64,000 bases of DNA from Minisyncoccota bacterium. GTDB taxonomy: Bacteria > Patescibacteriota > Minisyncoccia > Phycocordibacterales > JAGLPS01. The stretch lies in the NCBI GenBank assembly GCA_023137185.1, contig JAGLPS010000019.1, forward strand, positions 309 through 64,308, read 5' to 3'. Positions 1 through 40,888 of the stretch are shown piece by piece. A program made the translations under genes and the position numbers. Numbering within the stretch: position 1 is the first letter of the stretch; the number at the start of each line of letters is the position of its first letter. The notes under the pieces are model-generated. The model searched no databases. It worked only from the letters and a program-made list of their open reading frames with translations, and was not told the DNA's origin.

Positions 1-3000
1 TTATAATTTCTCTTATTATCGCACCTTTTGGTAGTTTTTTCTCAACAGATTCAAGATTGATGTCATTAGTGTTCTTTGAAACAGATATTATTTTTGTCCT
101 ATCTCTTGATGGTTCATAAATAGCGATGAGATTGTCCATTACGGTTTTTAAATGGGAAATAAAGATTAAAGACTTTCCTGTTCTTGGGTGTTTCGCGTAA
201 TGGTACCTTGCGAACGCATTTTCATTATACACCGCCTTCGTCGTTGTTCCGTACGTGAGCAAATTCAGAGAAATTAAAGACTGGCGTTTCTTTTCAGCCA
301 AATCATAACTAACTGCAAGGGTGTTCCCCCACTCGTCCGTTATCGTGGTGGATTTATCTCCAAACAAAACCACGGGTTCTTGCGTTGTTTCGTCAATGCC
401 CGTTATTTCTATGCCGTTCTTTTCCATAGAAAAACCGATTCTCGCTTCGGGAGGAATGTCATCAACAGGAATCGGGGGTAAGGTTACAGTGCCTCCGATC
501 ACGGGCTCAAGCGAAATGTCCGTTTCTCCGTCATTGTCAAAATCCACGTCAAGAGAAGACGCGTTCTCTATGGTGCCAAGAGGAAAAGATATTGACGCTT
601 TCGTTGTGGTCGCAACTGGTATTGATTCAAACATAGTCGCGGCAATAATAACGCCATTGGAAGATTCTTCTATTTCAAGGTCAAAGGACCCGCTCGCGAA
701 TCCCGAAAGATTTATAACAGGAGCAGCTTGTTTTGGTATGGAGATATATTGGACTTCTCCAAAGTGTTTATACCTTCCCCCGGGTATAGCCGATGTCGTT
801 GAACTAAGTGTGTTTCCAAAACTGTCTACAGCCGTCATACCCAAAGGAGAGTGAAGATAGAAATACAAGCGGTTGTCGGATTCTCCCACCGATGGCTGGT
901 AATCGGTAACAAATTGCGGAGTGGTAGTCGTCCCCTCAATTTTGTTTTTTATGAGCTCAACTAGCTGTGGAATTTCTAAAATGTTTTTGTGCTCCCTTGG
1001 AACATGAATACCACTAGATAAAACATTGTTGTAACTATTCAAATTCACCCACCACCTTTTAACGTTCGGGCTTGAAGTGCTCATAGCAAGAGCGCTCGGC
1101 GTAACAACTATCCCATCGCCGTCAACAACAAGCTTAGGTTTATAATCCCACACAAGTTCGCTTTCCTCACAGAAAAAGTTATCCCCAATCGGCAAATAAG
1201 AAACGCATTTATTTTTCCCTTTATAAACTATTGACGACAACGTCTCCTCGCCCCAGCCGGCAATTTCGTAAATATCAATACGCGAAGGCGGAATAAAATC
1301 GTCTATTTCATTATGCGCGCTATCGGCGTACGCGAGCAATTGTTCGTTCAATACTTCCGGCGATGACAAATCGGAAAATAGCGGGGATTCCCTGCCATCG
1401 CCCTCCTCGCCTTTTAGAAAACTCCAAAGTTCCTCCTTCGTATCTATTGTATCGCCGTATTCAGCCACAGCATCGTCTATTGGTTCGTACCCGCTACCTT
1501 CAAACCGTATGGGAGGCGTGGTTATTCCTCCGCCTTCACCCAGCCAATACGAAGCGGATGGTAAAAGAGGATACGCGCCCGGCATATTCTGCGCAAACTC
1601 GCGCGCCGTGCTCCTTGAAACCACCGCGTCAAACCAGTCTTTAGGCAAACCCTGGTCAAAGCCGTGAAGAAGCGCGCCTATCGCCATCGGCGTTCCCGCT
1701 TGCGGAACCGCCACCAAAAATACGTTGTCAATTTTTTCAAGAAGCGGGCTGTTTTCATTTTCAAGTTTTTTCAGCAAATACTTTACTACCAGTCCCCCGT
1801 TTGAATGAGCAACAATAGACACTTTTCCCGTCTTTGACGTTTCAGCGAGCCGATTGAGTTCCTGAATAATGTAAGGAGTGCTAGTCGCCCGCAAATCTCC
1901 AGAATAGTAAATTTTTTCGTCCACTTTGTTCCCATAAGAGAGAATGTCATTAAGCGAGAGCCGCCAATCGTATGGCACGGTCGAATAATCGGCGATAATA
2001 CGCTCGTCGTTTTTCCAAGTTTCCAAATCGGAAAGAAACGACTTGTAAATATTCCAAAGAGGAATAAACCCAAACGCGCGCACCTCGCCAATCACGTCCT
2101 TTGTGTAAATATCAAAACGCGCGCTTTGTCCGTTTTCATCCAAAAAGAGCGCTTCAACATCGCCGTTGTTATTAGGTTCCCAAAGAATATCCGTGCCGCC
2201 GCTATAGTCGGGTTTGTACAAGCGACTTGCTTCAAGTCCCGGCAAAAACAGAACACTTGAACAACATTCCGGCGCGAGAATATTAAGAGGATACTCGGTA
2301 AGCCATGGGTCAAAATCAACGTCGCCGACAACTCCGTCCCCCGTGCCCAAAGGGTTCACGGGATTTCTCGGTCCGGACGCATCTCCCCACCAATTATTGG
2401 TGGCATCCGCGATATCAGGGTTTGCGGACGGCAAACTGGAGTAAAAATTGACGCCGTAGTTTGAGTTTCCGGCGATAGAACTGTCATGAATTTCAAGAAT
2501 CGGTCGGATGTCGCAAGAAAAAACTCCGGCGCAGACGCCTAGCACACCATCAAAATTATTCGTAATGGTCGTGCTCGCGATACTCGCCGAGCCACCTGTT
2601 AACTTCACACCTGCGATAATAAAATCTTGGATCACGGCGTCTGCTAATTCAAGATGTCCTCGCTCGCCGCTTCCGGCGCTGACCTCAATTCCAACTCTTC
2701 CACCCGAAAGAAACACGCGATTCGCACTCGCGATCGCGTTGACACTTATGTTGATTGCCAATCCCGACCCCGCGTTGGTAACAGTTATATTTTCAAATGT
2801 CGCGGTCGCGTTTCCGACTGTAATTCCCGAGCCACCAGTAAGATTTTCAATAGTAATATCGGAGAACAAGCAGGTTCCACCCCCGCCACAGGACAAGCCG
2901 TCGTTAACATTATTCAACGTAATATTTTTAAATTCATACGTTCCATTATTCGCGATAACAGAACGAACTGAATCAAGAAAATGCGTGTCTTCAAAAACAG

Positions 3001-4430: not shown

Positions 4431-4460
4431 ATTTCATCTGCCCTTCAAAGCAAAGCTTTT

Positions 4461-4669
4461 CAGGACATTGGGTTGCATTTGTCCCTTGCCCTTCGTCGAA
4501 GACTTCTCAAGGACTGCGTCGCTTCGCTTCTTTCCCTGCCCTTCGTCGAGGACTCCTCAGGACATTAGATTGCATTTGTCCCCTGCCCTTCGTCGAGGAC
4601 TCCTCATCAGGACTGCATCGCTTCGCTTCTTTCCCTGCCCTTCGTCGAGGACTCCTCAGGACACTGAAT
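4461..4669. repeat. Tandem repeat, about 99 bp x 2.1. Each unit contains two copies of a 28-bp core (CTGCCCTTCGTCGAGGACTCCTCAGGAC) separated by two alternating 21-22-bp spacers.
   Basis: Read directly from the sequence. The spacers themselves recur, so this is not CRISPR-like. Confidence 0.8.
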
Positions 4670-4702
4670 TTTTATAGTCGCTTCGCTCGTTAAAAATTCG
4701 TG

Positions 4703-4773
4703 CTGCGGGACTTGGACTCGAACCAAGATACTCGCCTTCAAAGGGCGATGTCCTACCATTAGACGATCCCGCA
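4703..4773 (-). tRNA. tRNA-Gln (anticodon UUG)
   Basis: A cloverleaf folds by hand. The acceptor stem is U1-A72 and the discriminator is G73 (Gln identity elements). The D-arm is GUCU/GGAC, the anticodon stem UCGCC/GGCGA, the anticodon loop CUUUGAA and the T-arm CUUGG-UUCGAGU-CCAAG. No CCA is encoded. Confidence 0.75.
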
Positions 4774-6308: not shown

Positions 6309-7460
6309 TTAGTTTGTCTGTCTTGTTTTTAGATAGTTTTTCACCACTTTTTTTACCTCTTCTGCGTTTTTTACTTCCATAAGCCGCATCCGCAATTCTT
6401 TTGCCCCGTTCCAGCCAAATACGTACGCTTTGAAATGTTTTTTCATAACTGAAAAATTCTTTTTGCTCTTGAAAAGTTTTTCAAACAAAAGCGTATGCTC
6501 CACCATCACTGAAAGACGCTCCTGAATTGTGGGAATATGTCCCGGTTCCAATTTTGCGAGATTTTTAGAAAGCGACGCACTCACTTCGTTCGACCTATTT
6601 CGGCTCTGCGTCGCAAAACTTCGTTCGTGTGTTTTCAATTTTTTTTCTCTATCTTTTTCCAACAGCAAAATTGGAACGGGATGCTCAATTTGCCAACGAG
6701 CTTTTAGCTCGGGCAAATTGGCAAACATCCAAGGCGCGCCGAAAATCGCCCGTCCGAGCATTACGCCGTCCGCGCCTGTTTCTTTGGCTTTCTTTTTCGC
6801 GTCCGCGAGACTCATTATGTCCCCATTCCCTAAAATAAGAGTTTTGCTTTTAAGCGAATCGCGAATTTCAACCGCTCGTTTTATCACGTCCCAGCGCGCG
6901 GGAACGTCAGACATTTCTTTGCGCGTTCGCGCGTGAATTGTAATAGCGGCCGGCTCTTCGACTAATAACTCCAGAAGCCACGTTTCAATCTCATTTGTCT
7001 TGTATCCAATTCTTGTTTTAACTGACACGGGAATCCGCCGACCGGCGGATTCCGCGCCTTTTTTTGCCGCCTTTATAAGTTCGCGCGCGAGCTTCGGATT
7101 CTTCATCAATGCCGCGCCAGCCCCCTGTTTTTCAATGCTTCTGTCAGGGCATCCCATATTAATATCTACCCCGTCAAAACCAAGCTCAACGGCAAGCTTG
7201 GCGGCTTTGTGCATATTTTCGGGCTTTATCGTAAAAAATTGCGCCACAATTGGCCGTTCTTTTTCTGTAAATTTTAAGTTAGTCATAAGCGCCTTTTTGC
7301 CTCCCTGAAACAGCCCGTCCGCAGAAACAAATTCCGTCCACATTACATCGGGCTTCCCATATTTGGCGATAACACGCCGAAAAGCCGCGTCCGTAACATC
7401 CGACATCGGCGCAAGCGCTATAATTGGCTTTTTAAGTTTTTTCCAAAATCCCTGCGACAT
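6309..7460 (-). CDS. tRNA-dihydrouridine synthase (Dus family, TIM barrel) with a C-terminal extension
   Basis: ALAPMSDVTDAAFRRV...GVDINMGCP...KTRIG...GNGDI are Dus family motifs. Confidence 0.8.
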   Translation of the reverse strand: MSQGFWKKLKKPIIALAPMSDVTDAAFRRVIAKYGKPDVMWTEFVSADGLFQGGKKALMTNLKFTEKERPIVAQFFTIKPENMHKAAKLAVELGFDGVDINMGCPDRSIEKQGAGAALMKNPKLARELIKAAKKGAESAGRRIPVSVKTRIGYKTNEIETWLLELLVEEPAAITIHARTRKEMSDVPARWDVIKRAVEIRDSLKSKTLILGNGDIMSLADAKKKAKETGADGVMLGRAIFGAPWMFANLPELKARWQIEHPVPILLLEKDREKKLKTHERSFATQSRNRSNEVSASLSKNLAKLEPGHIPTIQERLSVMVEHTLLFEKLFKSKKNFSVMKKHFKAYVFGWNGAKELRMRLMEVKNAEEVKKVVKNYLKTRQTN

Positions 7461-8035: not shown

Positions 8036-8148
8036 TTTGCCCTCCTTTCTTTATGAAAAGAATTTAACCTAAAACTAGTTATAGCACAAAATCATCTTTT
8101 GCAAAGGAGAACCCATCCTATAAGATGCCGCTTGTACTACCTCATTGC

Positions 8149-8190
8149 GCAAGCGCTATAATTGGCTTTTTAAGTTTTTTCCAAAATCCC
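8149..8190. repeat. Exact 42-bp duplicate of the 5' end of the dus gene (7411..7452), displaced into the intergenic region
   Basis: GCAAGCGCTATAATTGGCTTTTTAAGTTTTTTCCAAAATCCC is present at both sites. Confidence 0.8.
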
Positions 8191-17479: not shown

Positions 17480-19708
17480 TTGGTATCAATGACTAAGTTG
17501 TTAATTGTAGAATCACCGGCAAAAGCCAAAACCATCACAAAGTATCTTGATGATACATATACCGTTACCGCGTCAGTCGGGCACATAAGAGACTTGCCAA
17601 AAAGCAATAAGAAAGCCGTGGATATAGAACACGGTTTTGTTCCACATTACGAAATTTCCAAAGGAAAAGAGAAAGTTATTTCGGAAATAAAAAGTCTCGC
17701 AAAAAAAGCAGAGGAGGTGCTTCTCGCGACCGACCCCGACCGCGAAGGAGAAGCGATCGCGTGGCATATAATTCAAGCCTGCGATTTAGAAAATCAAAAG
17801 TTAAAAGTCAAAAGGATTGTTTTTCACGAAATTACCAAAGACGCCGTCAACGAAGCATTAAAGCATCCCCGAGATATTGATAACGACTTGAAGGAAGCTC
17901 AGGAGGCCCGCCGTGTTCTTGACCGCCTCGTCGGCTACGACTTGTCGGGACTTATCTGGAAAAAAGTTAGATATGGACTTTCCGCGGGACGAGTGCAATC
18001 CCCCGCTTTGCGAATCCTCTCCGAACGCGAGCGCGAAATCGCGGCTTTTATTCCCCAGAAATATTGGGTTATTGACGCGGACACAGAAACTGATAAAAAA
18101 GAAAAAATTACTTTTACCTGCGCGAAAGAACCCACTGAAGAAAAAGAAGCGGAAGAGATTTTGAAACGAGGAAAAGAGGCGCAATGGAAAATTGTTGATG
18201 TTAAAGAAACAAAAGGGAAACGTGCACCGAAAGCTCCTTTTATCACTTCAACTCTCCAACAAGCCGCAAGTTCCCGTCTTGGATTTTCGCCATCACGCGC
18301 GATGATGCTTGCCCAGAAACTTTATGAAGCGGGATTCATTACATATATGCGCACCGATAGCACTACCATAAGTGGTTCTATTGCCACTCATATCGCGGAA
18401 GTTATCAAAAAAGAGTTCGGAGAAAAATTATACACGCCGCGTGTATATAAAACAAAATCAAAAAACGCGCAAGAAGCGCACGAAGCAATACGTCCAACTG
18501 ATGTACTGAAGAGGTTTGCTGGACACAATGACGCGGAGAAAGCGCTCTACCAGCTTATCTGGGAAAGAACTGTCGCCTCTCAAATGGCAGACGCTATTGT
18601 TTTGAAAACCCGCGTCATCGCGGAAGGAGGAAAGGAAAATCCTGAGTTTACGGCAAATGGTTCGCGAATTATTTCACCCGGCTGGCTCCTTGCTGACCCG
18701 CGCGCGCGAGGCGAAGACGTAGAACTGCCGAAAGTGCAAGCTCAAGACAATCTCTCTCTGCTTAAAATACGCTCTGAAGAAAAAGAAACGCTTCCCCCGC
18801 CTCGCTATTCAGAGGCCGGCCTCGTAAAAGAGCTTGAAAAGCGCGGTATTGGTCGCCCTTCCACTTACGCGGCTATCATAAAAACCATTCAGGAAAGAGG
18901 CTACGTTGAGAAAATAAACCGCAGTCTCAAAGTAACAGACACAGGCGAAGTAGTAAGCTCTTTTCTAGAAAATAATTTCGCAAAATACGTAAGCGATACA
19001 TTTACCGCCGAGATGGAAAACAAGCTTGACGCAATCGCCGATGGACAAGCCACATATACAAAAATACTTGAAGACTTTTATGCCCCATTCGCCAAGGATG
19101 TGGAATCAAAACAGGACACGGAAAAAATCACGACACTGGGAGACGCTGAACCTCATCACAAATGTCCTTTGTGCGGAGGAGATATGATTATAAAACTCGG
19201 ACGAACCGGAAAGTTTTTAAGTTGTAAAAAATTCCCAGAATGCAAAGGCGCGCGAACACTGGAAGGAGAAGCAATGGAAGGACCAAAAGAAACTGGAGAA
19301 AACTGTCCCGAATGCGCAAAAAGCCTGCCTGTTGAGAAACAAGGAAAACTTGTAGAGCGTATGGGACGATTCGGAAAATTTATCGCTTGTAGCCGTTATC
19401 CCAAATGTAAGTACGTCAGGAAAGACCCCGCTCAAGAAGAAAAGGCAAAAACAGGAGTTAAGTGCCCCGAATGCGCAAAAAGCCTGCCTGCCGATAAGCA
19501 AGGTGAAATTATGGAGCGTCGCGGACGATTTGGACCTTTTTTCAGTTGCAGCAACTACCCTGATTGCCGTTTTAATATAAAATCAAAACCGACAGGAAAA
19601 TTGTGCGAGGATTGCGGTTCTCTAATGATGGAAGGCACGAAGACTATCCCTGAACGTTGTAGCAACAAAAACTGTCCAAATCACAATCCTCATAAAAAAA
19701 TAAAGTAA
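17480..19708 (+). CDS. topA: DNA topoisomerase I with C-terminal zinc-ribbon repeats
   Basis: TOPRIM TDPDREGEAIAWHI, and multiple CPxC...C Zn ribbons (CPLCGGDM, CPECAKS x2, CEDCGS). The start may be Met-4 (MTKLL). Confidence 0.9.
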   Translation: MVSMTKLLIVESPAKAKTITKYLDDTYTVTASVGHIRDLPKSNKKAVDIEHGFVPHYEISKGKEKVISEIKSLAKKAEEVLLATDPDREGEAIAWHIIQACDLENQKLKVKRIVFHEITKDAVNEALKHPRDIDNDLKEAQEARRVLDRLVGYDLSGLIWKKVRYGLSAGRVQSPALRILSEREREIAAFIPQKYWVIDADTETDKKEKITFTCAKEPTEEKEAEEILKRGKEAQWKIVDVKETKGKRAPKAPFITSTLQQAASSRLGFSPSRAMMLAQKLYEAGFITYMRTDSTTISGSIATHIAEVIKKEFGEKLYTPRVYKTKSKNAQEAHEAIRPTDVLKRFAGHNDAEKALYQLIWERTVASQMADAIVLKTRVIAEGGKENPEFTANGSRIISPGWLLADPRARGEDVELPKVQAQDNLSLLKIRSEEKETLPPPRYSEAGLVKELEKRGIGRPSTYAAIIKTIQERGYVEKINRSLKVTDTGEVVSSFLENNFAKYVSDTFTAEMENKLDAIADGQATYTKILEDFYAPFAKDVESKQDTEKITTLGDAEPHHKCPLCGGDMIIKLGRTGKFLSCKKFPECKGARTLEGEAMEGPKETGENCPECAKSLPVEKQGKLVERMGRFGKFIACSRYPKCKYVRKDPAQEEKAKTGVKCPECAKSLPADKQGEIMERRGRFGPFFSCSNYPDCRFNIKSKPTGKLCEDCGSLMMEGTKTIPERCSNKNCPNHNPHKKIK

Positions 19709-19986
19709 TATTAAAGCACGCAAACTGCTTTGCGTGCGCAACTAGTCTGAGTGAGCCGGAGCGATGTTTCTGTAGCAACAGAAACCGCGAGGCGGGTGAG
19801 AAATGCTGGGAGCATTTCGCAAGACCTTTTGAGACAATTTCTGAATTGTCCAAAAGGTGTACAGACTCTGTAAGAGTCACAAGTCATTCAAGCTCCGTCG
19901 AGCTTGAATGACTTGTGACCGAAGACTATCCCTGAACGTTGTAGCAACAAAAACTGCCCAAATCACAATCCTCATAAAAAAAACTA
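19709..19986 (+). mobile_element. 211-bp non-coding structured element inserted immediately after the topA stop. It is followed by a near-identical duplicate of the last ~66 bp of topA, carrying its own in-frame stop (PHKKN*).
   Basis: topA 19642..19708 is repeated at 19920..19986 with 2 mismatches plus an altered terminal codon. The element begins with the hairpin GCACGCAAACTGCTTTGCGTGC. It ends with CCAAAAGGTGTACAGACTCTGTAAGAGTC plus a 20-bp-stem hairpin. The same 3' motif ends the tRNA-linked elements. Confidence 0.5.
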
Positions 19987-23131: not shown

Positions 23132-23236
23132 ATCAGTTTATTAAAACAATTTTAGCATATTTTTTTCTAGGAGCGAAAATTCGTGGAGTATTCTAAAATT
23201 GAAACAGAGGCTTATTTGTAGTAACGTGTATCGTAT

Positions 23237-23318
23237 GCCGAGGTGGCGGAATTGGTAGACGCGCACGACTCAAAATCGTGTGGGGAAACTCATGAGGGTT
23301 CAAGTCCCTCCCTCGGCA
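23237..23318 (+). tRNA. tRNA-Leu (anticodon CAA), class II
   Basis: GCCGAGGUGGCGGAAUUGGUAGACGC, anticodon arm CACGA-CUCAAAA-UCGUG, long variable arm, T-arm GAGGG-UUCAAGU-CCCUC, acceptor CCUCGGC-A. No CCA is encoded. Confidence 0.8.
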
Positions 23319-23638
23319 CAAATTGAGCAAAGCGAAAGCTGTGCCGAGGGAGGCGCAGCTTTCTTTCTGAAGAAAGCGTCGCGCGGACTTGAAGCCCGAT
23401 TGAGATTTTCTTGAATCCAAAGGATGAAAAGAAAATCCAATTGGGGTACTGTTCCTGTAAGGAACAGTACCCCAACACAAGTAGTCAAGGCGAAGTTGGG
23501 CGCGGCAAAATCGTGTGGGGAAAGGCTTGAGGGTTGAGGCGCGAATACTTGGAGCGCCGAAAAATCTTGTGAGATTTTTTCTGAAAAATCCACAAGGTGT
23601 ACAGAACCTGTAAGATTCAAGTCCCTCCCTCGGCACCA
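23319..23638 (+). mobile_element. tRNA-3'-end-linked element. It comprises module B (about 130 bp), the hairpin GGGGTACTGTTCC-TGTAA-GGAACAGTACCCC, a partial tRNA-Leu copy (anticodon-3' half to T-stem), the GGTGTACAGAACCTGTAAG motif, and a duplicate of the tRNA 3' end with CCA (ATTCAAGTCCCTCCCTCGGCACCA).
   Basis: It starts exactly after the discriminator A. Module B is shared with 30473..30630 and 40615..40777. Confidence 0.5.
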
Positions 23639-23645
23639 AGTCAAA

Positions 23646-23726
23646 ATTTGGAAGCTCGGCTTCCAAATGGGAGTCTCAAAACGTGGTGTAATAATTTTAC
23701 AGCTTTTGGACACTGAGTGTCCAAAA
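23646..23726. repeat. Composite palindromic repeat element (ATTTGGAAGCTCGGCTTCCAAAT ... TTTTGGACACTGAGTGTCCAAAA); same family as 8894..8971, opposite orientation
   Basis: Seen in the sequence. Confidence 0.7.
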
Positions 23727-30280: not shown

Positions 30281-30818
30281 CAAAATCAAATTTCAGCAGG
30301 TTCTCCTGCTGAAATTTGTATTTCTAGTAGCACACGCAGTGTGCGATGGGATTTGAAAGATTTTGCGGGGCTACCCATTCAGCAGAATGGGTCGCAAAAT
30401 CAGGGCTGAGAAATTTTTTACTGCGGCGGCAGTAAAAAATGTTCTTGGCCAAATCCCTCCCTGCGCACAGATTGAGCAAAGCGAGAGCTGTGGCTGGGAG
30501 GCGCAGCTTTTTTTCTGAAGAAAGCGTTGCGCGGATTTGAAAACCTTTTGAGGTTTTTTGGAGTCAAAGACGAACAAAAAATCCAAAAGGTGTACAGAAA
30601 CTGTAAGTTTCAAATCCCTCCCTGCGCACAAAATCAAATTTCAGCAGGTTCTCCTGCTGAAATTTGTATTTCTAGTAGCACACGCAGTGTGCGATGGGAT
30701 TTGAAAGATTTTGCGGGGTTACCCATTCAGCAGAATGGGTCGCAAAATCAGGGCTGAGAAATTTTTTACTGCGGCAGCAGTAAAAAATGTTCTCGGCCAA
30801 GTCCCTCAGCGCGCACAA
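30281..30818 (+). mobile_element. Three tandem tRNA-3'-end-linked elements. Module A (30281..30472), module B (30473..30630) and module A' (30631..30818) each end in a duplicate of the tRNA-Tyr 3' end (AAATCCCTCCCTGCGCA; degenerate in the third).
   Basis: Module A and A' are about 97% identical over about 190 bp and are built from four near-perfect hairpins. Module B matches the elements at the Leu-CAA and Leu-UAG loci and ends CCAAAAGGTGTACAGAAACTGTAAGTTTC. Confidence 0.55.
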
Positions 30819-39630: not shown

Positions 39631-39895
39631 GAAAACTGGTTGCAGTTTTCGTAGAGGACTAGGGAGTACGTAAACTGCTTTACGTGCGTCGGGAATCGAA
39701 AGGTGGAGGCACGTTTTTCTAGCAAGAAAAACAGCCGAGCCAAGGTCATGGAAATGTGTCTGCGACGGCAGACAAATTATCCCTGACCGATTCCCGCCCA
39801 GGCCTCCAGAAAACCGACTGTGGTTTTCGCAGAGGATTGGGAGCATGTAAACTGCTTTATATTCATAGGCTTTGTACCTTTTGTTTTTAAGGCAA
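39631..39895 (+). mobile_element. tRNA-3'-end-linked element. It starts with the hairpin GAAAACTGGTTGCAGTTTTC and a CGTAAACTGCTTTACG hairpin, and ends with a duplicate of the tRNA-Cys 3' end with CCA (39789..39808). A second truncated copy follows (39809..39895).
   Basis: GATTCCCGCCCAGGCCTCCA is repeated. The CUGC-loop hairpin is shared with the topA-linked element. Confidence 0.45.
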
Positions 39896-40274: not shown

Positions 40275-40532
40275 CTCGCGAAGCGAGTCCGAGACGGAGG
40301 CTGACGAGCCGAGTCGGGCTCGCGCAAAAATTCAGCAGAATTTTATGTGTGAGGACACAAAGACTTTGCGAAGCGATAGGACGTCCAGAGAAAGCAAACT
40401 GCTTTGCTTTCGTCAGGATTCGAAGTTGCCTAACAAGCTAAAAACTAATAAACTACAAGCTGTGGTTATGGGCAGACGGGAAAATTCAAGTAGTACAGCA
40501 AAGCTGACCACAGGATAAATCCCGTACAAAGT

Positions 40533-40614: not shown

Positions 40615-40777
40615 CAAATTGAGCAAAGCGAAAGCTGTGCCGAGGGAGGCGCAGCTTTCTTTCTGAAGAAAGCGTTGCGCGGACTTGAAGCCCGATTGAG
40701 ATTTTCTTGAATCCGAAGGATGAAAAGAAAATCCAATTGGGATACTGAAACTGTAAGTTTCAAGTCTCCCCCCAGCA
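40615..40777 (+). mobile_element. tRNA-3'-end-linked module B, ending in GATACTGAAACTGTAAGTTTC plus a duplicate of the tRNA-Leu(UAG) 3' end (AAGTCTCCCCCCAGCA)
   Basis: About 95% identical to module B at 23319.. and 30473... The whole tRNA-plus-element unit is bracketed by a 19-bp inverted repeat (40521..40539 and 40772..40790). Confidence 0.5.
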
Positions 40778-40888
40778 CTTTGTACGGGATTTGAAATAAC
40801 TTGACTTTTTTAAATATTTGTGACACTGTTACAAATAGAAGATAACGCTTTTTGAAATCGGTTTTTACATCCTAAAGGAGGGTGCAAA

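Follow-up and report, generated by a model that had tools for sequence, protein, structure and literature searches.

The DNA downstream of the tRNA-Leu(CAA) gene in the window (the whole 64,000-nt stretch analysed here) contains two members of a family of small, structured, protein-less modules which is specific to Patescibacteria, common in that group and outside the RNA families catalogued in Rfam. The modules share a conserved domain, termed D, of which at least 119 loci are found in Patescibacteria genomes and five copies, all on the + strand, in the window (covariance model R1). Their usual order is a gene end (U), a leader, the reverse complement of U, D and a second copy of U. It is proposed, with a probability of about one half, that these modules are non-autonomous mobile elements which carry a replacement gene end and displace the original one.

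The tRNA-Leu(CAA) composite and its relatives

The first-pass annotation described an intact tRNA-Leu(CAA) lacking an encoded CCA, followed directly by a module, a hairpin, a second partial tRNA copy with an insert in its T loop and a CCA-bearing 3'-end duplicate, and this outline holds (Table 1). The module behind the tRNA (B1) had been described as about 95% identical to two further copies, which is true of the copy at 40616 behind a different tRNA (B3; 95.8%) but not of the copy at 30470, where identity is only about 80%. The perfect hairpin GGGGTACTGTTCC-TGTAA-GGAACAGTACCCC at 23443–23473 exists and represents an unusually extended form of the P3 hairpin (UGUAA loop) of the family, stretched to 13 bp. 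In the same domain, P1 pairs 23395–23402 with 23438–23445, P2 spans 23404–23437, and GTAC forms J2. Overlooked so far were the segments of the module that are antisense to the 3' end of the tRNA (g2 and g1). U is the segment which is both duplicated and mirrored. The reverse complement of the tRNA's last 13 nt, which is g2, lies at 23341–23353 and at 40637–40649 and has four matches against an expectation of 0.01. The hairpin separating g2 from g1 is also kept in two other loci (L047 and L056), beside other guide sequences.

The second tRNA copy is a good match to the gene between the anticodon loop and the T stem, being intact from the anticodon loop through the T-stem 5' strand. Upstream of this stretch it is degenerate, back to about 23484, with the D arm and the 5' strand of the anticodon stem partly deleted, and ends at T55. 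The reported 80-bp insert in its T loop (23536–23615, ending CTGTAAG) is present as well, but it is not unrelated sequence: it corresponds to a minimal form of the conserved domain of module B (R1 match at 23551–23622, 56.9 bits, E 3e-13). This minimal D has no antisense segment of its own and is closable by the T stem. Downstream of it, TTCAAGTCCCTCCCTCGGCAC at 23616–23636 repeats 23299–23319 at 21 of 21 positions (dinucleotide shuffles expect 0) and is followed by CA, which yields the CCA. The CCA asymmetry between the two ends is explicable either by insertion after C74 of a CCA-encoding gene or by displacement of the original CCA-encoding 3' end, so that an RNA intermediate is not required. 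The composite also produces a spurious ORF on the minus strand (23193–23666).

The long form at the topA stop consists of GGTGAG, a Px hairpin, CGCAAGACC, P1/P2, P3 and a 44-nt hairpin with a GTGAC end, and the end of the topA ORF is duplicated around it over 63 nt (19638–19700 and 19920–19982; 62 of 63 identical). In the tRNA-Tyr array, domain D of B2 lies at 30530–30615 and the variant U at 30798–30817; this terminal U is not Tyr-like in pairwise alignment. In B3, domain D occupies 40678–40765 and the Leu(TAG) 3'-end copy, with one C fewer, occupies 40759–40778; the antisense segments of B3 are of the Leu(CAA) type, while both flanking copies are of the Leu(TAG) type. The module behind tRNA-Cys has a terminal CCCTGAC followed by a tRNA-Cys 3'-end copy at 39788–39808.

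Table 1. Features of the tRNA-Leu(CAA) composite and further family members in the window.
Feature	Position	Strand	Support or remark
tRNA-Leu(CAA), complete, no encoded CCA (C at 23319)	23237..23318	+	ARAGORN; Rfam tRNA model 61.3 bits
U: T loop, T-stem 3' strand, acceptor 3' strand, discriminator, C	23299..23319	+	
B1 leader AAATTGAGCAAAGCGAAAGCT	23320..23340	+	B3 opens with an identical leader, B2 with a close variant
g2 GTGCCGAGGGAGG, reverse complement of tRNA positions 62-74	23341..23353	+	
Hairpin separating the two antisense segments (GCGCAGCTTTCTT..AAGAAAGCGTCGCGC)	23354..23384	+	
g1 GGACTTGAA, reverse complement of T-loop and T-stem positions 54-62	23385..23393	+	
Domain D, copy B1	23382..23469	+	Covariance model R1, 85.2 bits; covariation
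Decayed second tRNA-Leu(CAA) copy	23484..23535	+	Pairwise alignment
Minimal D (5' hairpin, P1/P2, P3) inside pseudo-tRNA T loop, positions 55/56	23536..23615	+	
U', exact tRNA 3'-end copy from T loop on, then CA (CCA)	23616..23638	+	
Long-form member at topA stop	19709..19919	+	R1, 66.1 bits
tRNA-Tyr array: module A, U, module B2, U, module A, variant U	30282..30817	+	
A-type module behind tRNA-Cys	39631..39808	+	Antisense segments CGGGAATCGAA and TGGAGGC
Module B3 behind tRNA-Leu(TAG) and Leu(TAG) 3'-end copy	40616..40778	+	

Fold and distribution of domain D

The D core, carried by modules of about 80–200 nt, consists of a long bulged hairpin and a short hairpin with a UGUAA loop. This fold is strongly supported by covariation: 91% of the cells of the P1/P2/P3 model are paired and 184 double-change cells are counted as opposed to 63 in shuffles (0 of 500), the loop-closing base pair covaries, and G-U pairs are confined to the + strand. 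Fold z-scores are −6.1 and −6.3. The domain terminates in C-UGUAA-G, followed by 3 nt that are the complement of the 3 nt ahead of it. In a long form, both ends are sharply defined and conserved (G|GUGAG at the 5' side, UGUAAG at the 3' side), and the antisense lies farther upstream; a closing helix beside its GGTGAG shows no enrichment, helices of at least 8 bp occurring in 20% of cases, equal to the control. The tip of P2 is optional and absent from minimal copies. The idea that GAG..CGAA at this tip, or the tRNA-Gln repeats, might represent hammerhead or box C/D elements was rejected given that the tip is optional and no model matches.

The R1 model gives 134 matches in 100 of the at least 119 loci, whose sequence conservation is overstated because they were picked by an exact 26-nt pattern. 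In Rfam 15, the whole window (gathering score and E≤5) and a 351-nt region (E≤10) matched only tRNAs and, by chance, miRNA and snoRNA models. Among 2.9 million viral contigs no true D match was found; the lone match lacks P1/P2 and is attributed to chance, so carriage by phages was dismissed. Literature searches returned no published description of D modules, and a paper on tRNA introns in Patescibacteria does not mention T-loop insertions or duplications.

A common junction, in which the end of D is followed by a tRNA copy from T-loop position 56/57 on, is shared by dozens of loci. The earlier proposal of insertion as opposed to plain tandem duplication stands in so far as the modules are discrete members of a dispersed family. 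The site specificity for tRNA 3' ends that it implied does not, since modules are also located at ORF 3' ends, upstream of tRNAs and in pseudo-tRNA T loops.

Gene ends, antisense segments and their possible origin

About half of the D copies lie behind tRNAs, with all isotypes represented, and the others include copies at ORF ends. Of 65 tRNA-adjacent copies, 61 run in the same direction as the tRNA. The leader often forms a terminator-like hairpin, and the reverse complement of U is often split by a hairpin. At tRNAs, U comprises positions ~56–74, antisense to the local 3' end is found for all isotypes, and the duplicated length equals the length covered by antisense (19–21 nt). Both antisense segments are complementary to one and the same strand. 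They are true complements of the 3' strand in three of three informative G-U cases, which excludes that they are copies of the tRNA's own 5' strands (a decayed minihelix). Of 50 loci, 36 have an antisense that fits the upstream, functional copy better and 8 have one that fits it less well, and by our own reading of the scores every locus with a gap of at least 5 favours the upstream copy. Over all targets, the repeats are 10 to 63 nt long and reproduce the end of the local gene. ORF ends are duplicated at topA, in L030 and at rplK in four genomes, and duplicated tRNA 5' segments lie upstream of four tRNAs. At rplK, three loci (L015, L029, L081) show co-variation between the repeated ORF end and the antisense to it, and in another (L048) the antisense tracks the downstream copy alone. 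At topA, just 6 nt of antisense were found as opposed to the 63-nt duplication.

The upstream tRNA or ORF is whole in all typical loci; only pseudo-copies are interrupted, namely by the T-loop insertions in the window and in L125, where each pseudo-tRNA begins within the anticodon arm. In this biased sample of loci, 36% of tRNA genes are followed by a repeat of their own 3' end. These downstream copies are often too decayed for pairing and often unusable as exons. Some are nonetheless informative: CCA and a terminator-like hairpin are found on the downstream copy only in L012 and L017, the downstream copy also bears CCA in the window, L088 and L110, and in L122 it corresponds to the T67 allele of the near-identical tRNA of L127, while the functional copy of L122 has C67. 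In some loci (L076, L102, L016) the duplication overshoots the tRNA end by 5–11 nt, which indicates copying from DNA or a precursor and not from mature tRNA.

Presence of the modules is patchy. Nine of 11 related tRNA-Leu(CAA) loci with identical 5' 44 nt are empty, and both nested and tandem arrays occur. Among four contigs with identical ParB (99.8–100% identical), no filled and empty alleles were found, the sole gap being an N run. Pfam scans of 40 ORFs in the window detected no integrase, other recombinase, transposase or reverse transcriptase, and no TnpA/RAYT (Y1/HUH transposase) was seen in these 64 kb or in the 8-kb loci of other genomes. The ten protein families that recur in the largest numbers of 8-kb loci are housekeeping genes without an associated enzyme among them; recurrent neighbours are LepA, RbfA, ClpB, L11, NusG and MiaA.

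If the modules bring their own gene end, a unit would enter at the inner edge of the target (T-loop position 55/56), the gene would be completed by the unit's own U, and the original end would be shoved downstream as a non-functional U' which then decays or is invaded again. The antisense could pair with either copy of U. Pairing with the downstream copy would close D so that a three-way junction forms; in a single strand, hypothetically excised or circular, the antisense and the unit's own U would rebuild a double-stranded image of the target, as in folded single-stranded attachment sites. Catalysis would fall to a host or unlinked enzyme, or to the fold itself. Arrays would grow and mix through recombination and gene conversion between repeated U and D. 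At tRNA-Leu(CAA), the order would then be the intact tRNA, B1, an older decayed tRNA-Leu with the minimal D, and the original CCA-bearing 3' end. Mobility is supported by the empty related loci, the near-identity of B1 and B3 at different tRNAs, the nested and tandem arrays and the insertions into pseudo-tRNA T loops. An element-borne U is supported by the better fit of the antisense to the upstream copy, by foreign tRNA 3' ends in the arrays L083 and L007 that correspond to the antisense of the element on their right, by the CCA on downstream copies and by the T67 allele in L122, and the layout extends beyond tRNA 3' ends to ORF ends and tRNA 5' segments. Two observations speak against an element-borne U: the Leu(TAG) flanks of B3 disagree with its Leu(CAA) antisense, unless B1 later converted the interior of B3, and the last U of the tRNA-Tyr array is not Tyr-like. 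Nor does this reading account for the way in which the antisense segments are rewritten for each isotype of tRNA although the hairpin that separates them is conserved. A bolder version, tentative and rather doubtful, holds that the modules are a new nucleic-acid-guided mobile element: a single strand of 100–200 nt (RNA or DNA, possibly circular) folded as a rod or branch would find a 20-nt target by antisense pairing, insert by its own fold or ubiquitous host enzymes and bring a spare gene end to guard against failure. In this case, D would represent either a ribozyme of a new kind or a new motif of tRNA-like topology that recruits proteins.

Most of the evidence for an element-borne U would look the same if the target site had been duplicated and the free copy had then decayed. 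Here, the mobile unit would comprise the leader, the antisense and D only; the antisense would pair with about 20 nt, and nicks on opposite strands at the ends of the duplex, followed by fill-in, would duplicate the paired segment. Such guide-directed insertion, which we regard as unlikely, explains why the duplicated and antisense-covered lengths agree at tRNAs, why the repeat sometimes extends beyond the tRNA end and, if insertion occurs after C74, the CCA pattern. B3 would simply have inherited its guide from a Leu(CAA) copy, and within one genome the B lineage is found at three class II tRNAs whose T arms resemble each other. It is at odds with foreign tRNA 3' ends between elements, which in two arrays (L083, L007) match the antisense of the right-hand element, with the non-Tyr end of the tRNA-Tyr array and with the short antisense at topA. 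It also requires a pre-existing guide for each isotype, although unrelated guides accompany D cores that closely resemble one another in a single genome (L019, L052, L079).

A role as a putative host-beneficial, cis-acting RNA appears less likely still. The module would act as a tRNA-like or switch-like 3' element whose antisense pairs with the gene's own 3' end or a decoy, and D would be a folding, processing or insulating signal, for instance a terminator or a point at which RNase P, Z or III enters. The strong tendency of tRNA-adjacent copies to share the orientation of the host gene (61 of 65), G-U pairs on the sense strand only, the use of identical sites in distant genomes (rplK), the co-variation of the rplK duplicate with its antisense, the recurrent housekeeping neighbours and the terminator-like leaders all fit this role. 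The same applies to S, which would stack on a 5–6 bp hairpin right before the 3' strand in the topology of an acceptor/T-arm minihelix. It is difficult to reconcile with patchy presence even within one tRNA type, redundant tandem arrays, nested insertions and decayed copies, four copies antisense to a nearby tRNA and a decoy frequently too decayed for pairing.

Comparison with known elements

An internal guide complementary to the flanking exon is a hallmark of group I and II introns. The modules resemble these introns and other guide-bearing ribozymes in that an internal segment complementary to the flanking gene covaries with the host, in their insertion into structured RNA genes and in the GUGAG-like 5' end of the long form. 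They differ by a several-fold smaller core, the lack of a model match and a host gene that is uninterrupted thanks to the duplicated exon end. A new small self-cleaving or self-splicing ribozyme (a mobile intron) is conceivable but improbable; it would extend from T-loop position 55 to the downstream copy, and a tRNA would result whether or not the transcript is spliced. Besides the guide, the sharp ends of the long form, the simple T-loop insertions and invariant junction and loop nucleotides suggestive of a compact core argue for it. No Rfam ribozyme or intron model matched, even at E≤10 on the short region; for group I introns in particular there is no RF00028 match, and the D core of 70–90 nt compares with a minimum of about 200 nt. 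A core of 80–110 nt is likewise far below the size of known self-splicing introns, and downstream copies are frequently useless as exons. An in-frame continuation in L060, considered as a true intron in a protein gene, is explained by a diverged ORF-end duplicate. Finally, group II introns are reported to be absent from Patescibacteria (PMC13011429), and no reverse transcriptase was seen. A retroelement primer-binding site was also rejected, as no TGG precedes the antisense in B1, L019, L021 and L031 and the duplication reaches into the trailer.

tRNA-integrating islands and prophages likewise insert between the T loop or anticodon loop and the 3' end of a tRNA gene, supply a replacement 3' end (part of attP) while the displaced original forms a direct repeat, and can build tandem arrays of partial tRNAs. 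The modules share the direct repeat of a tRNA 3' part at their bounds; they are, however, only 80–200 nt long, have neither an internal nor an adjacent integrase, contain an antisense copy of the repeat and a folded domain, and are found at ORF ends and tRNA 5' ends as well. From what is established on the tRNA sublocation classes of integrases, partial tRNA copies that start in the anticodon loop or T loop and run to the 3' end are typical attL/attR products. Yet it is highly improbable that the modules are leftover element ends, scars of serial tyrosine-integrase integration and excision at an attB in the tRNA T loop or 3' end: although the pseudo-tRNAs of the window and L125 begin in the anticodon arm, the structure is conserved, covarying and strand-specific across a whole bacterial class and not a random remnant, true viral matches are lacking in the contigs scanned, classical att recombination has no use for an antisense copy, repeat lengths vary at ORF ends and 5' ends, and a classical crossover is unlikely with no recombinase in the window or recurrent near the elements.

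In CTX phage attP(+) and integron attC sites, as in the modules, an inverted copy beside the site folds one strand into a double-stranded image of the target, which is strand-specific and bulged, with a non-palindromic loop between the arms. In the modules, however, the stem is the host gene's own sequence and changes per target, the "loop" is a conserved, covarying three-helix domain, and dependence on Xer or IntI is known only for the former. The ends of IS200/IS605 elements, PATEs and REPINs (HUH/Y1) are similar in being protein-less, strand-specific hairpins with conserved nucleotides 5' of the hairpin and a guide upstream which pairs with downstream sequence; mobilisation would be in trans. 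Their pairing involves 4 nt as opposed to 10–21 nt, and the modules show an apparent long target duplication. Where the copies differ, the module antisense matches the upstream copy and not the right end of the element, while the guide of IS200/IS605 recognises the right end and no target is duplicated. Bacterial MITEs are also short, abundant, non-coding, structured and often directly downstream of genes, but the modules lack element-specific terminal inverted repeats and a short fixed target duplication; their inverted and direct repeats copy the target gene itself (10–63 nt). IS110 bridge RNAs and TIGR arrays were dismissed, given that both antisense segments complement one strand and no recombinase or Nop-domain gene lies nearby; the size and layout of the module unit also differ from the 36-nt TIGR units.

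Patescibacteria are among the bacteria with the smallest genomes, and few transposable elements are known from them; despite this scarcity, five copies are found in 64 kb. Should the modules move without a protein dedicated to the task, they would illustrate a way for selfish DNA to persist in extremely reduced genomes: the invaded gene is never broken, a spare end is supplied and the element's own antisense is neutralised. The antisense would, in addition, be a naturally reprogrammable 20-nt targeting segment. If they instead benefit the host, they would represent an unrecognised layer of tRNA or mRNA 3'-end handling in Patescibacteria. Either way, annotation is affected by tRNA pseudo-fragments, spurious ORFs and altered ORF termini as in topA, and covariance model R1 can be used to locate the modules.

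Composition of the tRNA-Leu(CAA) locus

The first-pass annotation of the tRNA-Leu(CAA) locus is accurate, with three caveats, because the parts of the locus were confirmed by ARAGORN, Rfam, alignment and shuffles. An intact tRNA without an encoded CCA and a downstream copy that carries one were recovered by ARAGORN, Rfam and sequence reading, and the perfect 13-bp-stem hairpin is present, its UGUAA loop as originally drawn being backed by covarying loop-closing letters. The second tRNA copy and the 80-nt insert in its T loop also exist, but the insert proved to be a minimal module B core. The reported identity of approximately 95% between module B copies holds for B3 behind tRNA-Leu(TAG), which is 95.8% identical to B1 although the two lie at different tRNAs, but B2 behind tRNA-Tyr aligns at about 80%. 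Absent from the earlier description were the antisense segments of the tRNA 3' end inside module B. In shuffles, 0 occurrences of the 21-mer 3'-end copy and 0.01 of the 13-mer antisense are expected by chance. The observation is thus genuine; it turns out to be both broader in scope and stranger than was supposed.

Features of the tRNA-Leu(CAA) locus and copies of the folded domain D in the window
Feature	Position	Strand	Basis or remark
Intact tRNA-Leu(CAA)	23237-23318	+	ARAGORN, Rfam; C at 23319, CCA not encoded
Module B1 leader, 21 nt	23320-23340	+	sequence reading
GTGCCGAGGGAGG	23341-23353	+	exact reverse complement of tRNA positions 62-74
Hairpin between antisense segments	23354-23384	+	sequence reading
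GGACTTGAA	23385-23393	+	reverse complement of T-loop/T-stem positions 54-62
Perfect 13-bp hairpin at the end of D	23443-23473	+	sequence reading
Decayed tRNA-Leu(CAA) copy, stopping at T55	about 23484-23535	+	pairwise alignment
80-nt insert	23536-23615	+	minimal copy of module B core (covariance model)
Exact 21-nt tRNA 3'-end copy, then CA	23616-23636	+	sequence match
D copy after topA stop	19811-19882	+	covariance model
D copy B1 behind tRNA-Leu(CAA)	23382-23469	+	covariance model
Minimal D copy, pseudo-tRNA T loop	23551-23622	+	covariance model
D copy B2 behind tRNA-Tyr	30530-30615	+	covariance model
D copy B3 behind tRNA-Leu(TAG)	40678-40765	+	covariance model

An older gene copy would be represented by the decayed tRNA body together with the 3' end that carries CCA; its T loop may have been invaded later by a minimal D, and the intact tRNA with B1 would be its replacement. 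Mechanically called minus-strand ORFs of 88-157 aa run across the tRNA and modules (23193-23666, 23300-23713, 30371-30637); these are almost certainly artefacts, which annotation pipelines could call as genes. Two families of short palindromes are dispersed in the window, TTTTGGACAC..GTGTCCAAAA (8892, 23701, 36975, 60768) and TTGGAAGC..GCTTCCAA (8950, 23647, 31530, 50945, 60244), with one member of each directly 3' of the composite; both are probably terminator-like repeats.

A conserved, strand-specific folded domain

A 26-nt search pattern derived from the five window copies of D, TCCANNNGGNRTACWGNNNCTGTAAG, has at least 119 matching stretches in the collection of species-representative genomes, where by our own estimate approximately 17 matches are expected by chance. 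All titled records among the matches listed are Patescibacteria MAGs, and the matching MAGs comprise Paceibacterota, Kaiser-, Taylor-, Nomura- and Zambryskiibacteria as well as bins labelled Saccharibacteria. The single match in 2.9 million viral contigs was dismissed as chance, the flanking helices being absent.

An alignment of 48 D copies supports two helices, the long P1/P2 with a conserved bulged A and the short hairpin P3, with 91% of cells paired. Double-sided changes occur in 184 cells as opposed to 63 in shuffles, none of 500 shuffles reaching 184, and the covariation score collapses once partners are shifted by one column. One P1 pair is found as G-U (14 copies), G-C (10), U-A (21) and C-G (3), and the structure is therefore that of the plus strand, as RNA or single-stranded DNA. 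In copies missing the exact pattern, covariation links the two outermost letters of the loop (C..G, A..T, G..C), identifying the P3 loop as a UGUAA pentaloop; the GUAC..UGUAA nucleotides are invariant. With the covariance model, the window yields precisely five copies, each on the plus strand, and 134 matches are obtained in 100 of the fetched loci. D matches no Rfam family at any threshold used, no description of the family was found in the literature searched, and a study of Patescibacteria tRNA introns does not mention it.

Recurring layout at gene ends

Among 127 instances of the pattern, 55 follow an intact same-strand tRNA, mostly at a distance of 100-200 nt and across all isotypes. Their order is constant: tRNA, leader (often a terminator-like hairpin with A and T tracts), antisense, AAG, P1/P2, G(U/G)(G/A)UAC(U/A)G, P3 and tRNA copy. 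The antisense, the reverse complement of the last ~20 nt of the tRNA, is either contiguous (L024, L037) or split by a hairpin into segments g2 and g1, and the downstream copy resumes at position 56/57 and runs to the tRNA end, forming an antisense/sense pair made from the end of the host gene. In loci whose acceptor stem contains G-U pairs (L006, L031, L061), the element is complementary to the 3' strand and does not reproduce the tRNA 5' strand, which marks the antisense as a genuine complement of the former. The antisense sequence differs by isotype, with its internal hairpin remaining conserved (window B, L047, L056). Folded with its downstream copy, B2 forms a branched rod, both antisense segments being paired to that copy (z = -6.3). 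Long forms contain an extra GGUGAG, hairpin and CGCAAGACC ahead of P1; some of them, including the topA copy, also have a further hairpin and after it a terminal ..UGUGAC. Other modules, namely the A units behind tRNA-Tyr, the unit behind tRNA-Cys and many found in other genomes, share the plan of antisense, AAG, domain and tRNA 3' copy, their domain being CCGGAG..GAGGCGGGGUCGCG..GUUGUGAC. In this biased locus set, 70 of 196 tRNAs have their own 3' 15-mer copied downstream, and 61 of the 65 copies next to a tRNA share its orientation.

The downstream tRNA copies recurrently show a 2-nt insertion (AT, AC or CT) after T-loop position 58/59 (e.g. L014, L019, L020, L041, L046, L050, L052, L061, L079, L088, L100, L104, L117), which would be a bulge facing the antisense segment. 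A third module type, with its end reading ..TTAGTCGAG and then GG, lies ahead of tRNA 3'-end copies in L031, L035, L042, L072 and others. The region behind tRNA-Lys (40276-40425) contains a degenerate A-type module and, after it, a hairpin and GTCAGGATTCGAAG, antisense of the tRNA-Lys T loop; having no downstream 3'-end copy, the module looks like a truncated family member.

The module family is not tRNA-specific. D also occurs at protein-gene 3' ends, with a duplicated ORF end of 63 nt at topA (19638-19700 = 19920-19982), where the insertion turned the TopA C-terminus from ..KKN* (downstream copy) into ..KKIK*, and of 35 nt in L030. The two topA copies differ once, in a synonymous Cys codon (TGT vs TGC). 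The rplK site is occupied in four distant genomes with a duplication of 10-14 nt; the duplicated end and the antisense co-vary in L015, L029 and L081, and the antisense in L048 matches the downstream copy only. Furthermore, four loci have the element on the 5' side of a tRNA; ahead of the element is a copy of the first 12-17 nt of that tRNA, beginning exactly at +1.

Ownership of the gene-end copies and proposed mode of movement

Which copy of the terminal segment belongs to the element decides the mechanism, and two models have evidence in their favour. In the first, the element brings the upstream copy (U, tRNA ~56-74) and displaces the original, now the downstream copy. Of 50 loci, 36 have an antisense that fits the upstream copy more closely and 8 one that fits it less well, and by our own reading of the scores all loci with a gap of at least 5 favour the upstream copy. 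L083 and L007 contain a foreign tRNA 3' end between two elements; the one in L083 matches the antisense carried by the right-hand element. CCA is found on the downstream copy only in the window, L012, L017, L088 and L110, with a terminator-like hairpin after it in L012 and L017. In L122, T67, the allele of the near-identical L127 tRNA, is retained in the downstream copy, and the functional copy has C67. The second model, target-site duplication, is favoured by B3, which carries a Leu(CAA)-type antisense yet has Leu(TAG)-type copies on both flanks, and by a duplication that may extend 5-11 nt into the trailer. Both models need occasional gene conversion to absorb each other's cases; that conversion happens is suggested by the arrays and by the odd last copy behind tRNA-Tyr. 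This copy (30798-30817, CAAGTCCCTCAGCGCGCACA) has four clustered differences from tRNA-Tyr and may derive from another tRNA locus by conversion. The same 36 vs 8 count speaks against an arrangement like that of IS200/IS605, in which the downstream copy would belong to the element as its guide-matched right end.

Presence is variable among related tRNA-Leu(CAA) loci: 11 metagenome loci have the same first 44 nt of the tRNA, nine of them with nothing behind it, and L122 carries an A-type module with a truncated 3' copy. L125 repeats the window's order of intact tRNA, spacer, partial tRNA copy, T-loop insert and 3' end with CCA. This independent locus (Ga0265297_10000570, about 1075-1340, minus strand) has a 73-nt insert unlike the window's, and its partial tRNA copy is 100% identical to the intact gene. 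Modules are also nested, and arrays (A-B-A behind tRNA-Tyr, B-A-B in L089) show growth via recombination between repeated 3' ends. No enzyme is linked to the elements: none of 40 ORFs in the window is a transposase, integrase or reverse transcriptase, and housekeeping genes account for the protein families recurring in the 8-kb loci that surround elements of other genomes. The window does encode DprA.

Returning to an element-borne upstream copy, we assign a probability of about 0.5 to a picture in which a mobile unit of U, leader, antisense and D would enter at the inner edge of the target segment, its own U completing the gene and the original end being left downstream. The antisense would allow a single strand to rebuild a duplex image of the target, and may close D in both the free and integrated states. 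Catalysis could come from an unlinked enzyme of the HUH or Xer type, from general recombination once DNA has been taken up, or from the fold. We class the family with the integrative elements that replace gene ends, as a variant showing features of folded single-strand recombination sites; the chance that it is a novel type of mobile nucleic acid or ribozyme bearing a guide is substantial, although well below even.

Other repeats were observed in the window. Directly downstream of tRNA-Gln (4702-4773) lie four tandem units of ~50 nt (4460-4670, minus strand) of two alternating types with a period of 99, each containing GAGGAGTCCTCGACGAAGGGCAGGG and starting with a CUGAUGAG/CUGAGGAG-like motif; no Rfam model matches them, and the units are of the wrong length for TIGR arrays. 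An inverted repeat of 16 nt, AAATCCCGTACAAAGT / ACTTTGTACGGGATTT (40517-40532 and about 40777-40792), exactly encloses tRNA-Leu(TAG), B3 and the 3'-end copy and resembles a processing stem. Lastly, an exact 44-nt direct repeat (7409-7452 and 8147-8190, 738 nt apart) has one copy in the 5' end of dus (6309-7460, minus strand) and the second in the region upstream of it.
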